From Gammaproteobacteria bacterium (GTDB lineage Bacteria; Pseudomonadota; Gammaproteobacteria; Eutrophobiales; Eutrophobiaceae): DNA of 64,000 nucleotides. Shown here piece by piece: positions 3,447 to 32,659 of this stretch (positions within the stretch are counted from its first letter, which is position 1; the number at the start of each line of letters is the position of its first letter). The position numbers and the translations under genes are program-made. The notes beneath the pieces are model-generated. The model saw only the letters and a list, made by a program, of their open reading frames with translations, was not told where the DNA came from and made no database searches. Location: assembly GCA_028819495.1 (NCBI GenBank), contig JAPPLI010000100.1:4190-68189 (forward strand), given 5' to 3'.

Positions 3447-4322
3447 TTATTCCCTTTCCAGCACCCCCTGACACGCTGCCGGCAAATCGGCCATCATGAT
3501 TTCAGGCGGTTGATCTTCCGGCGCCCGAGGTGGCGGGTACAATGCCTCGTCGGTGAACCACCAGTCCAGTTCCTCGTTGCAGCCGTCGCCCTCGGGCGGT
3601 GGTTCCTGGTCGGTGCAGGCACTCGCTTCCGGGCAGTGTAGACGCACGTGGAAATGGGAATCATGGCCCCACCACGGGCGGACCTTGCGTAACCAGTCGG
3701 TGTCGTCCTCCGTACGGTCCCGACACAGGCGGCGTTTGATCGCAGCATTCACGAAGATGCGGGCGACAGCTTCATCCCGCGCCGTAGCCTCGATGACCTC
3801 GGAATGCGCGCCGGTCCAGTTACCATTCACCTGCAACCGGCTTGCCGCGACCATCGAAGGGGAATTGATCTTCTCTCGTTCCGCCGCGCTCAACTTCAGG
3901 CTGCCCGGCGCACGTAGCCATATATCGGCGTCGAGACCGATCTGGTGCGAACGGTGGCTGGACACCATGGGCCCGCCGCGGGGATGGCTGATATCTCCCA
4001 CGTACAACCCGGCCCAGCCCACGGCCTGGGCTGCGCGTGACAGCCGCTCAATGAACGCGATCATATCGGGATGGCCCCAGTTGCGGTTGCGAGACAGGCG
4101 CATCGCCTGCCAGCGAGGACCTGTTTCGGGAAGCTGGGCCGCGCCCGCCAGGCATCCTGCCGCGTAACCGCCGAACGGAGCAGGCACAGCATTGGTAGGC
4201 GCGTCGATTGCGCTGAAGGCGAACTTGGCGGGCTGTTCGTTTTGCGCGCCTGCGCCGAAAGCGGATGAAAGGATGAGGGTGAATATCAACGCCCGTCCGG
4301 CGCGTCGGGCAGTTGGTGTCAT
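3447..4322 (-). CDS. mepA: Penicillin-insensitive murein endopeptidase
   Basis: Signal peptide; GCLAGA, RNRNWGHP, HRSHQIGLDADIW, VRPWWGHDSHFHVRL motifs. Confidence 0.92.
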   Translation of the reverse strand: MTPTARRAGRALIFTLILSSAFGAGAQNEQPAKFAFSAIDAPTNAVPAPFGGYAAGCLAGAAQLPETGPRWQAMRLSRNRNWGHPDMIAFIERLSRAAQAVGWAGLYVGDISHPRGGPMVSSHRSHQIGLDADIWLRAPGSLKLSAAEREKINSPSMVAASRLQVNGNWTGAHSEVIEATARDEAVARIFVNAAIKRRLCRDRTEDDTDWLRKVRPWWGHDSHFHVRLHCPEASACTDQEPPPEGDGCNEELDWWFTDEALYPPPRAPEDQPPEIMMADLPAACQGVLERE

Positions 4323-30119: not shown

Positions 30120-30183
30120 TTAATTTCAAAGTTTGTCATTACAGCGTATTGACAATTTAGCGGGCGCCTGGCATGATGCAGCC

Positions 30184-30675
30184 ATGCCAAAGACCAGCCA
30201 GCTTCAAATCCGAATTGATACCGACCAGAAGGAACGTATCCGACAACGCGCGCAGAATGCGGGAATGGATGTATCGAAATGGGTGTTGAGCCAGCTCCTG
30301 CCTCCTGCCGGGGAACGTTTTCAAACGCTTTGCAAAGAACTCGCAGAAAAGCCTTCGCTACGAGCCTACACTCTTGCGGAGTTACATGATTTCTTCAAGC
30401 GCCTTGAACCACAGGAATTTTCCAGGGCGCTGCAATATCCCCCTGCTGCTCAACTCGCCCCCTTTGAAGCAAACTACCTGGCGGCGATGATTGAGTATGC
30501 CGCTGCCGCAAGAAATGTGCCCGTCCCCCAGTGGGTGATAAATATAGAACGGCTTGAGACACCCTGGTTTGCTTCATCCCTGCAAGGCCTGCGGTTGTAC
30601 CTGCTGACACATTCCCCGCCTGCTTTCCGCCGGCGCAACCTGTTTATCGACAGCAGTGTCGGGGAGCGGATTTAA
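30184..30675 (+). CDS. RHH-like DNA-binding protein, putative antitoxin
   Basis: LQIRIDTDQKERI...AGMDVSKWV N-terminus; stop overlaps the NTase start (TAATG). Confidence 0.6.
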   Translation: MPKTSQLQIRIDTDQKERIRQRAQNAGMDVSKWVLSQLLPPAGERFQTLCKELAEKPSLRAYTLAELHDFFKRLEPQEFSRALQYPPAAQLAPFEANYLAAMIEYAAAARNVPVPQWVINIERLETPWFASSLQGLRLYLLTHSPPAFRRRNLFIDSSVGERI

Positions 30676-31205
30676 TGGCTTTTCAGAAGGAGGAGATTCG
30701 CCGTTTACTGGAGCGCCTCAATGATGAACTGGCCGATGCCGGTATTACCGGAGAGTTGTACCTGGTGGGTGGCGCCGTTATGTGCCTGGCATTTAATGCG
30801 CGTCCATCAACCAGGGACCTTGATGGCTTTTTCAAACCGGCGCGTGCCGTCCGTTCGGCAGCAAAACGTATCGCTGCAACCCTGGGCCTGGATGAAAACT
30901 GGCTTAACGATGCCGTGAAAGGATACCTGGGCAATCAGGGCGACTTTCAGGAATACCTCGATCTTTCAAATCTACGGGTGATGATTGCAGGCCCCGAATA
31001 CCTGCTGGCCATGAAATGCCTGGCCCTGCGTCTTGGTGAAGAATTCCACGATGAGGCCGACGTGCGTTTCCTGCTCCGCTACCTGAATATTACAAATTAC
31101 CGGAAAGCACTGGATATCATCTGCCAATATTACCCGTTGGAGCGATTCCCGCAAAAGACGCTGTACGCGTTGGAAGAAATGGTAGATGATCTGGTTCCGG
31201 ATTAG
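30675..31205 (+). CDS. DUF6036-like nucleotidyltransferase, putative toxin
   Basis: LVGGAVM...RPSTRDLD motif, WLND, YLLAMK...R. Confidence 0.78.
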   Translation: MAFQKEEIRRLLERLNDELADAGITGELYLVGGAVMCLAFNARPSTRDLDGFFKPARAVRSAAKRIAATLGLDENWLNDAVKGYLGNQGDFQEYLDLSNLRVMIAGPEYLLAMKCLALRLGEEFHDEADVRFLLRYLNITNYRKALDIICQYYPLERFPQKTLYALEEMVDDLVPD

Positions 31206-31267: not shown

Positions 31268-31750
31268 ATGCATACCGACAAACAATACACCGACCGGTTC
31301 GCCCGGGAAGTCATCGACCTGCACATCTTTTTTGAAGACTGGTTCGGCGGCTACTGCGAGAACAGCGAGCAGGTTTTTGCGGAACGCCTGCTGGACCGGA
31401 TGCACGGGGATTTCAACATTATCCTGCCCGGAGGCATGATGATTTACGGCGCCCATTTCTGGCCGGAGTTCAGGAAACTGTACGGCAGCAACCCGGATTT
31501 TCATATAAGCATCCGCGCCGTCCAACAGCAGCCGCTGCCTGGTGAATCGGTATATCTGGTGAACTACCAGGAATGGCAGAGGAATGCCTTGCAATCCACG
31601 CCTCAGAACAACGGGCGGCTGTCATCGGCCGTCTTTGTTGAAGACAAGGATGCGCCCAACGGTATCAAGTGGTTTCACGTACATGAGACTTGGCTGCCGG
31701 ATGGTGTTATGTCGGCAGAGCCGTATGACTGGGAGCATGATACAAAGTAA
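31268..31750 (+). CDS. DUF4440/NTF2-like protein
   Basis: EVIDLHIFFEDWF, YQEWQ, RLSSAVF, WFHVHETW. Confidence 0.72.
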   Translation: MHTDKQYTDRFAREVIDLHIFFEDWFGGYCENSEQVFAERLLDRMHGDFNIILPGGMMIYGAHFWPEFRKLYGSNPDFHISIRAVQQQPLPGESVYLVNYQEWQRNALQSTPQNNGRLSSAVFVEDKDAPNGIKWFHVHETWLPDGVMSAEPYDWEHDTK

Positions 31751-31751
31751 A

Positions 31752-31779
31752 TCGGGGACAGGTTAAAACCTGCCCCCGA
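31752..31779. repeat. REP-like hairpin or possible terminator
   Basis: TCGGGGACAGGTT-AA-AACCTGCCCCCGA directly after the stop codon. Confidence 0.55.
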
Positions 31780-31828
31780 CCATATTCTTCCGACTGAAAT
31801 CTGTCCACTTCAGCACGACATTGTCAAT

Positions 31829-32050
31829 TCAGGCGCGTAGTAGTTTTCCAACCGGGTCCGCTTTTGCAGTTTCTGAAATTGCCTCTTGAGCCCAAGGAGC
31901 GAATTCTTGGTAGGGAGGCAAAATAATCCATCCGTAATCATCGTCGCCAACCGCAGTAAATTGCCCGGCTGCGACACACAGCGCCGTCAATGCACAAACA
32001 AGGGCCGCCCTGTCATCATGATTCGTTATTTCACAAGGATTTATTTTCCA
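31829..32050 (-). pseudogene. 5'-truncated DUF429-like gene remnant
   Basis: Manual translation EITNHDDRAALVCALTAL...FTAVGDDDYGWIILPP...stop; no start codon, in-frame TAG just upstream. Confidence 0.6.
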
Positions 32051-32295
32051 CCTGTGCTACGGGTTTTGCCGGAGCAGCGGCGTAAACTATTTATATCGGC
32101 GCCCGTTCGACGTGCACTGACAATTTCAGGCAAGACCTCGGGTTGTTCCACCCAAAGGGAATACTCATGCAAAGTCAGGCCAAGGAAATCGTGGATGGTT
32201 TTGTCGCTATCACACTCGTGCCAGCGCGCTACATAGGCATCTATATCGCTAAATCGAGCCGCGCCGGAAAGGCACTTTTGCATGAAATCAGACAC
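32041..32295 (-). CDS. Small protein, putative immunity/antitoxin for the ColE3-like toxin
   Basis: GTG start overlaps the toxin stop; DIDAYVARWHE...IHDFLGLTLHEYSLWV. Confidence 0.65.
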   Translation of the reverse strand: MSDFMQKCLSGAARFSDIDAYVARWHECDSDKTIHDFLGLTLHEYSLWVEQPEVLPEIVSARRTGADINSLRRCSGKTRSTGGK

Positions 32296-32521
32296 GGATT
32301 TTTCTCCCTTTGACGGCACTTTTCATTAAACGTCCCTCAAGCGGTTCGAGAACGCCCAGATGATGCCCGCGACTATTGAAAACTTCAATTTCGCCATGCA
32401 GCGAATCCCAGGTATATAGCCTTTTTCGGTCATGGGACCGCCACCTCTGCTCTCCGTAGCGAAACCCCAGATATTCTTGTTTCTCAAGGAATGACGAGAG
32501 AGATTTAGACTTCTTTGACAT
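32288..32521 (-). CDS. Stand-alone colicin E3/pyocin S6-type RNase domain
   Basis: RWRSHDRKRLYTWDSLHGEIEVFNSRGHHLG aligns by eye with the ColE3 RW...IYEWDSQHGELE...HLG motif; catalytic D/H/E conserved. Confidence 0.85.
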   Translation of the reverse strand: MSKKSKSLSSFLEKQEYLGFRYGEQRWRSHDRKRLYTWDSLHGEIEVFNSRGHHLGVLEPLEGRLMKSAVKGRKIRV

Positions 32522-32659
32522 ACATCCGTGTGAAGTAAATATCCTACATCGTGGTCAAGCAATGTATGCATTCACGCGATAAGCGGATAAACCGGTTAAG
32601 TTTAAATCTGTCATACGTCATAGTATCGACAAAAAGCAAGCGTTGCCCTGTTAATAACG

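Follow-up and report, generated by a model that had tools for sequence, protein, structure and literature searches.

The stretch of DNA analyzed here (hereafter the window; 64,000 nucleotides, positions 4,190 to 68,189 of contig JAPPLI010000100.1 in assembly GCA_028819495.1, from a gammaproteobacterium of the Eutrophobiaceae) encodes on its reverse strand a compact two-gene locus, in which a stand-alone ribonuclease domain of the colicin E3 (ColE3) type is followed by a small gene of an unnamed family, referred to below as the partner. The locus comprises the following features:

32288..32521, reverse strand: toxin gene, 77 amino acids, a stand-alone colicin E3-type rRNA-cleaving ribonuclease (rRNase) with a PF09000 match
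32041..32295, reverse strand: partner (predicted antitoxin) gene, 84 amino acids with a GTG start, of an unnamed family and retaining its conserved N-terminal core only
32288..32295, reverse strand: 8-nucleotide overlap between the end of the toxin gene and the beginning of the partner gene, GTGTCTGA, suggestive of translational coupling

An earlier note on this DNA, made from the sequence alone, had read the first gene as the ColE3-like catalytic core and nothing else, free of any signal peptide or delivery domain, and both parts of that reading are upheld. The PF09000 'Cytotoxic' family, i.e. the colicin E3 rRNase domain, covers residues 25-75 of the toxin (E 3.7e-13; 50.1 bits against a curated cut-off of 22), and a profile built from 19 toxin-family members aligns positions 23-75 with ColE3 residues 494-547 in the solved chains 1E44, 1JCH and 2B5U (E 3e-11 to 6e-10). 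In the profile alignment the toxin residues D39, H42, E46, H54 and R73 fall, respectively, on ColE3 D510, H513, E517, H526 and R545, the roles of which have been described (PMC3482391), and all five are invariant across the 19 members of the family alignment. The first 22 residues are unrelated to ColE3, and because the alignment begins at ColE3 residue 494, they take the place of the first ~38 residues of its 96-residue RNase domain. This N-terminus, MSKKSKSLSSFLEKQEY, is hydrophilic and on inspection has no signal-peptide-like stretch; nor can the open reading frame (ORF) be extended, its start being the first start codon past an in-frame stop.

A word-indexed protein search recovered 185 short homologs of the toxin, of 42-135 amino acids. 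Among the 120 of these listed, nearly all are 75-78 amino acids long and all contain PF09000; where the source gives a name, it is 'colicin E3/pyocin S6 family cytotoxin'. No homologs were found among proteins of 136-2000 amino acids, which is weak evidence for their absence. Neither NCBIfam, searched also for relatives of the two proteins, nor PADLOC offers a model for the toxin or the partner. The toxin subfamily has a conserved N-terminus peculiar to it and keeps to a length of ~76 amino acids in 79 of 80 surveyed loci (mostly 75-80).

At the gene junction, the 3' end of the toxin, CGT GTC TGA, embeds the GTG start of the partner (32295), as the earlier note had pointed out. A 92-amino acid version of the partner could be read from an upstream GTG, but the 84-amino acid start is preferred because an ATG or GTG is kept at the same junction position in 73 of 78 partner genes, the window included, with the junction usually reading ATGTCTAA. 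The 8-nucleotide overlap implies that translation of the toxin and the partner would be coupled.

Conservation of the gene pair

Relatives of the toxin were surveyed in contigs from one genome per species, and the best 80 of 208 stretches encoding a relative were retained. A hidden Markov model (HMM) of the toxin family finds a toxin ORF in 79 of these 80 loci, L050 being the one without, and the toxin is stand-alone in all 79; the homologs are therefore not the C-termini of long toxins, an outcome the earlier note had allowed for. A homologous partner lies directly downstream, overlapping the toxin stop, in 78 of the 79 toxin-bearing loci. The sole exception, L037, is on a contig that ends 56 nucleotides past the toxin stop, and in L078 the partner is shortened to 52 amino acids. 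An iterated search with the partner recovered 79 of 83 candidate downstream ORFs, including that of the window. The hosts of the toxin include Pseudomonadota, Bacteroidota, Spirochaetota, Planctomycetota, Actinomycetota, Bacillota, Nitrospirota and Thermodesulfobacteriota, among others. The two-gene arrangement is far beyond chance, recurring as it does across many phyla in 78 of the 79 loci with a toxin, and the neighborhood survey proposed in the earlier note thus confirms that the short toxin and its partner recur as a unit.

The converse search, from the partner into metagenome contigs, confirmed 474 stretches, of which 80 were kept. The toxin is immediately upstream of the partner in 64 of these, i.e. 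in 64 of the 77 with room for it; 13 lack the toxin despite sufficient room and three have no room. The 13 toxin-less partners are solo or fused genes. No toxin without a partner gene was seen in the surveyed loci, whereas toxin-less partners are fairly common, and this is the asymmetry expected of an antidote or antitoxin. The source genome itself encodes two copies of the partner and one of the toxin, the second partner copy being an orphan:

contig C70, L178:1519-1788, reverse strand: orphan partner copy, E 1e-28 to the partner-family profile

Only the last few codons of a toxin are left upstream of this copy, and it adjoins a gene for an AMP-binding enzyme, as in L002, L004 and L005. A degraded second copy is also seen in Rhodopila globiformis (L046:1915-2367, forward strand), where a C-terminal fragment of the toxin runs into partner-like sequence just upstream of an intact pair.

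The genomic context of the pair is patchy and mobile-like, and its neighbors differ even between close relatives. Besides many housekeeping genes, the 74 upstream neighbors of the relatives include three integrases, an IS4 transposase, ParE, a HEPN protein and Uma2 nucleases, so that other TA or defense genes are represented; delivery domains of the Rhs, VgrG, PAAR, CdiA, pyocin or colicin kind are absent from all 74. An association with phages was considered and rejected, as a relative occurs on only nine viral contigs, only one of them near full length. An association with plasmids was likewise rejected: the 20 matches among 72,556 plasmid records are partial, each covering less than 80% of the protein, and come from other PF09000 subfamilies, e.g. 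the Bacillus 'SAR2788 family putative toxin' and cassettes of pyocin loci.

The partner family and its predicted complex with the toxin

The alignment of the partner family defines a core of ~65 residues with the pattern F-x3-C-L-x-G...I-D-D-x-V-D-x-W-H...L-H-x-F-L-G-M-T-x2-E-Y-x-L-W, in which W25, H26, L38, E44 and Y45 are invariant; the window partner lacks the C-terminal (A/V/G)-A-R...W-L module found in most relatives. It has no match in Pfam at E<=1, and across 40 members of the family no Pfam family recurs at E<=10, Im3 (PF03513) and helix-turn-helix (HTH) families included. A profile of the same 40 members retrieves no chain from the PDB sequences at E<=10, though Im3 structures are present there, and NCBIfam and PADLOC likewise give no match to the partner. 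The suspicion voiced in the earlier note that the partner is not Im3 is thus borne out at the level of sequence. The family is sizable: an exhaustive profile-free search yielded 1183 cluster representatives at E<=1e-3, and the look-alikes in the ESM Atlas are unnamed clusters without a Pfam family. Two long repetitive proteins among the matches (P0130 and P0253) were set aside as low-complexity artifacts. The domain also occurs in other forms (P0134, P0135, P0140, P0157, P0188 and P0196), namely as a fusion to the toxin, in which the partner follows the toxin within one reading frame of 170 amino acids, as tandem duplicates and with unrelated C-terminal extensions; therefore, it may serve outside the context of E3-type toxins.

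Modeling of the toxin with the partner, using alignments of both, returned ipSAE values of 0.83, 0.82 and 0.85 in three runs, against 0.00, 0.00 and 0.01 for three controls. The pLDDT of the partner is at least 82, and the runs agree in at least 91% of the contacts. In calibration, the mark of the tool was reached by 116 of 157 solved complexes, compared with 2 of 215 mismatched pairs; these figures are a rough guide here, where our own alignments were used. The confident contacts on the toxin (residues 29, 31, 33-34, 47, 49-51, 53-56, 58, 63-65, 68-69 and 71-74) include H54 and R73. Those on the partner (19, 22-23, 25-27, 33-35, 42, 45-46, 49-50 and 52-53) include D19, W25, H26 and Y45 and all lie inside the retained core, between residues 19 and 53. 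The model supports a direct binding of the partner over part of the catalytic face of the toxin, in line with what the earlier note had proposed to check by this means. We know of no similar complex, which makes it unlikely that the score stems from a memorized solved structure.

The M78 protease gene of related loci

The partners of most relatives are 102-113 amino acids long, compared with the 84 of the window, and in the alignment their extra C-terminal module typically takes the form L-P-x-A-A-R-x7-9-L-x2-W-L-x3-G. Directly 3' of these long partners, on the same strand and usually overlapping, is a gene for a protein of ~320-335 amino acids. Of the downstream proteins scanned, 36 of 54 match the Peptidase_M78/IrrE N-terminal-like family (PF06114), and an HMM made from those 36 detects the protease gene in 42 of the 78 partner-bearing related loci; Pedobacter and Methylotuvimicrobium are among the hosts of such three-gene loci. 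In all seven proteases tested, the best PADLOC match is capP (E 3.5e-20 to 3.6e-32), RmrA matching less well, and the HExxH motif (A-H-E-L-G-H) and the motif E-x2-A-N-x-F-A are invariant in 17 sequences. The form of the partner and the presence of the protease are distributed as follows over 79 rows, i.e. the 78 loci and the window:

Long partner with (A/V/G)-A-R, protease present: 42 rows
Long partner with (A/V/G)-A-R, protease absent: 7 rows
Long partner without (A/V/G)-A-R, protease absent: 9 rows
Short partner without (A/V/G)-A-R, protease absent: 21 rows (window included)

Thus, the protease tracks the tail of the partner: in every one of the 42 protease loci the partner is long and carries (A/V/G)-A-R, and the protease is missing from all 21 rows with a short partner. 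The metagenome set shows the same pattern, with 46 three-gene and 16 two-gene loci. On an unrooted tree built from the last 70 residues of the toxin and the core of the partner, with the tail excluded, the protease label changes 14 times. The window falls in a clade of six rows with 100% SH-aLRT support, and the M78 metallopeptidase gene that adjoins the pair elsewhere is absent from the window and throughout this clade. Going beyond the earlier note, the pair is probably a cut-down version of a module of three genes, the third of which encodes a CapP/IrrE-like protease. The protease may have been lost repeatedly from a three-gene ancestor, a scenario tempered by the kinship of the rows, the lack of a root and the fact that well-supported branches force at least five of the 14 changes and not the remainder. 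Four other M78-type peptidase genes are encoded in the source genome (one at C12:34959-35513), none of them near the pair, and they match the family protease weakly, at most 75 bits.

The protease-less form shows the marks of selection. Comparison with five close relatives of the same clade gave dN/dS values of 0.08-0.16 for the toxin and 0.15-0.27 for codons 1-75 of the partner, with dS up to ~1.3. Both genes are hence under purifying selection within the protease-less clade, and it follows that selection has maintained the two-gene pair.

The nearest relative, L003, with a toxin protein 94% identical, is syntenic with the window across a TonB-dependent receptor, the toxin, the partner, a 160-amino acid gene and a FAD oxidase. 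Its partner frame runs on for 357 amino acids into a DUF429-like region (a weak match, 17 bits, below the cut-off). In blastn comparisons, window positions 32044-32649 correspond to L003 2978-2373 and 31240-32058 to L003 4378-3547, so that ~570 bp of the DUF429-like region of L003 is deleted in the window, with the junction at 32044-32058 (the region concerned being window 31805-32058, reverse strand, and L003:2727-3800). The TAA stop of the partner (32041-32043) is right beside the deletion junction, which creates it. The other four clade members have independent partner stops at 78-87 amino acids, and L003 is the fifth relative, which reads through. In L004, a gene with a strong DUF429 match (178 bits) is found ~600 bp upstream of the toxin. 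It is possible that a DUF429 protein is linked to the pair in this clade as a replacement third component, as seen in three of the six loci, the window included. Two features flank the pair in the window:

31805..32040, reverse strand: DUF429-like gene remnant, approximately the last 84 codons, out of frame; contains the ORF 31829..31990
32522..32659, reverse strand: intergenic region upstream of the toxin, bordered on its other side by the TonB-dependent receptor gene; presumed site of the promoter

Function and alternative explanations

Nucleases of the colicin E3 type are classically known as weapons that one cell delivers to another. The window toxin would, by homology, cut 16S rRNA at the decoding center and stop translation. 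In the work of Tian et al. (PMC9304027), four PF09000 proteins distant from ColE3 are all toxic on expression in E. coli and cut 16S rRNA in the ColE3 manner, between A1493 and G1494, the damage being reversed by RtcB2-PrfH.

In our assessment the window pair is probably a toxin-first, type II-like toxin-antitoxin (TA) module, which combines a minimal ColE3-type rRNase with a new, unnamed antitoxin family and derives from a three-gene, protease-linked module. The 77-amino acid ribonuclease would be made within the cell, cut 16S rRNA at the decoding center and halt translation; the 84-amino acid partner, translated from the overlapping start, would bind the nuclease around H54 and R73 and keep it inactive. 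The pair would descend from a commoner operon of the toxin, a longer antitoxin and a CapP/IrrE-type M78 metallopeptidase, in which, on a stress signal, the protease probably cleaves the C-terminal module of the antitoxin at (A/V/G)-A-R and thereby frees the toxin. The lineage of the window would have lost both the protease and this module, and release of its toxin might then come about by ordinary turnover of the antitoxin or by loss of the locus, i.e. addiction. This interpretation starts from what is established at the locus, namely the family membership and catalytic residues of the toxin, the gene overlap, the conserved pairing, the co-occurrence pattern and purifying selection, and the intracellular TA system envisaged in the earlier note draws computational support from the recurrence of the pair (78/79 and 64/77) and the score of the predicted complex (ipSAE 0.83).

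Four groups of known systems bear comparison. Colicin E3, cloacin DF13 and pyocin S6 with their Im3-type immunity proteins (PF09000 and PF03513) share with the window pair the catalytic domain family, the catalytic residues and the position of the inhibitor gene immediately downstream. The window toxin differs in having no receptor-binding or translocation domains, its partner is unrelated to Im3 in sequence and is predicted to contact H54 and R73 on the catalytic face, and on the favored interpretation the product would be for use within the producing cell. HigBA, MqsRA and HicAB are toxin-first type II TA modules. They too have the toxin gene first, followed by a small coupled antitoxin gene, a target in the translation apparatus, a patchy, mobile-like distribution and orphan antitoxins; in contrast, the toxin fold and the target (decoding-center rRNA, as predicted by homology) are different here and the antitoxin family is new.

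The other two groups involve an M78 or COG2856-type protease. Makarova et al. 2009 (PMC2701414) predicted three-component TA systems in which a COG2856 protease accompanies an Xre protein and a toxin of the RelE or PIN type. The three-gene relatives of the window pair resemble these systems in that a single operon encodes a toxin, a small partner and a Zn protease of the COG2856 type, and in the proposed logic, by which the protease inactivates the partner. Those systems have RelE/PIN toxins and an Xre HTH partner often fused to the protease; here, the toxin belongs to the ColE3-type rRNases, no HTH can be detected in the partner and the window has no protease. CapP is an M78 peptidase stimulated by single-stranded DNA, and it cleaves CapH (~100 amino acids) at F82/R83, in the first helix of a C-terminal module, an R83A mutant being left uncut (bioRxiv 10.1101/2022.04.27.489752; 10.64898/2026.05.16.725639). 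As with CapH/CapP (and ImmR/ImmA and DdrO/IrrE), the third gene of the relatives best matches capP and has an intact HExxH; comparable to the F82/R83 site of CapH, a conserved arginine lies in the C-terminal module of their long partner. When the partner is assessed as a CapH-type substrate, the 40 members match no HTH family, and the (A/V/G)-A-R module is present in relatives and not in the window. CapH/CapP is upstream of and divergent from the operon that it regulates transcriptionally, whereas in the relatives the three genes form one operon with overlaps between them, and the predicted binding of the substrate to the toxin would make the control post-translational (the two-gene form of the window excluded). 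In the three-gene relatives we infer that the protease acts as a direct post-translational trigger.

Several considerations weigh against the interpretation as a TA module. Toxicity, the 16S target, neutralization by binding and cleavage by the protease are inferred rather than experimental. The compared loci are kin, so the counts are not independent events, and the complex score is a confidence of the model and not a measurement. The window partner ends exactly at the deletion junction, so that its 84-amino acid form is a by-product of the rearrangement. The promoter presumably lies in 32522..32659, though a simple scan of this region found no sigma-70 consensus upstream of the toxin. Moreover, the four proteins tested by Tian et al. 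(PMC9304027; UniProt A0A2W6YY66, A0A2S3UWT3, A0A132N0E3 and A0A132MI77) may or may not be of the 77-amino acid class.

Some of these points could also mean that the pair is a decaying relic, no longer working after the loss of the protease and the antitoxin tail and heading for loss altogether. The missing third gene and C-terminal module, the ~570-bp deletion abutting the partner stop, the second locus of the same genome that is already toxin-less, and the absence of a promoter consensus would all fit such decay. We nevertheless regard it as unlikely, as both ORFs are intact with every catalytic residue kept, dN/dS is 0.08-0.27 against five relatives of the protease-less clade at dS up to ~1.3, the two-gene form has persisted through much divergence in a six-row clade with 100% SH-aLRT support, and all predicted contact residues lie in the retained core. 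The partner might instead be mainly a transcriptional repressor, a diverged HTH protein like CapH, DdrO or ImmR, with the toxin controlled by its level of expression. Many type II antitoxins both repress and inhibit, and the two roles are not exclusive. The partner of the relatives does match M78 substrates like CapH in place and size (~100 amino acids, a C-terminal two-helix module and a conserved arginine), and its LHxFLGMTxxEYxLW segment looks HTH-like by eye. This repressor role is, to our mind, quite unlikely to be the main one, given that no HTH family is found in 40 members at E<=10 and no match in the PDB, that the complex model places the invariant partner residues on the toxin with high confidence (controls 0.01), and that a ColE3-type nuclease would be too potent for leaky repression alone, the C-terminal domain of ColE3 (ColE3-CT) having resisted cloning into pBAD in E. 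coli (PMC9304027).

The pair could also be an orphan toxin-immunity cassette of a delivered system (bacteriocin, contact-dependent inhibition, Rhs or type VI secretion), kept as a spare recombination module or exported as cargo. PF09000 domains are best known as the tips of colicins, pyocins and CdiA (PMC9990079; Tox-ColE3 table in PMC3482391), and a real example of such a cassette is the 176-amino acid 'colicin E3/pyocin S6 family cytotoxin' in an S-type pyocin locus of a Vibrio plasmid. This origin appears very unlikely for a subfamily that has its own conserved N-terminus at a fixed length of ~76 amino acids in 79 of 80 loci, has no signal peptide, returned no longer homologs (136-2000 amino acids; weak evidence), has no delivery domain in any of 74 upstream neighbors and no match covering at least 80% of the protein in 72,556 plasmid records, and has as its usual third gene a cytoplasmic M78 protease and not a secretion component.

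With the TA module as the favored interpretation of the window, a bolder proposal for the family as a whole may be entertained, albeit tentatively and with more doubt than conviction. It could constitute a protease-gated, ribosome-killing suicide switch, in which the CapP/IrrE-type protease would sense single-stranded DNA or DNA damage (e.g. phage infection) and cut the antitoxin at A-A-R, whereupon the rRNase would destroy the decoding centers of its own cell. This would be a post-translational use of the CapP/ImmA/IrrE switch, so far described as transcriptional, and the first TA system to employ the colicin E3 nuclease, with an antitoxin of a new fold; the window would then represent a protease-independent derivative. 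The abortive-infection idea of the earlier note is made more concrete by the three-gene module for the relatives than for the window. No description of such a module was found in full-text literature searches, which did not extend to subscription journals and supplements.

What emerges is a compact and widespread ColE3-type subfamily that would act inside the producing cell, with an uncharacterized inhibitor family that has no Pfam model and with about half of its copies linked to a CapP/IrrE-like protease. If the TA interpretation is correct, the type II TA systems would gain both a toxin class and an antitoxin family that are new. It would further provide a natural minimal (77 amino acids) rRNase-inhibitor pair for studies of ribosome damage and repair, e.g. 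by RtcB2-PrfH, and a case in which direct control of a toxin by an M78 protease, instead of control via transcription, can be tested.

Two further features of the surrounding DNA deserve mention. Between the stop of the 160-amino acid gene and the DUF429-like remnant, at window positions 31750-31781, is a strong 14-bp GC-rich hairpin with a T-rich tail, which is likely a terminator for convergent transcripts. Farther along, at window 30133-31205 on the forward strand, are two overlapping genes that are not in the syntenic L003 locus: the first encodes 180 amino acids with a NikA-like/TacA-like ribbon-helix-helix N-terminus (below the cut-off), and the second 176 amino acids with a faint match to the DUF2204 nucleotidyltransferases. 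Together they look like a second TA-like insertion beside the E3-type pair.

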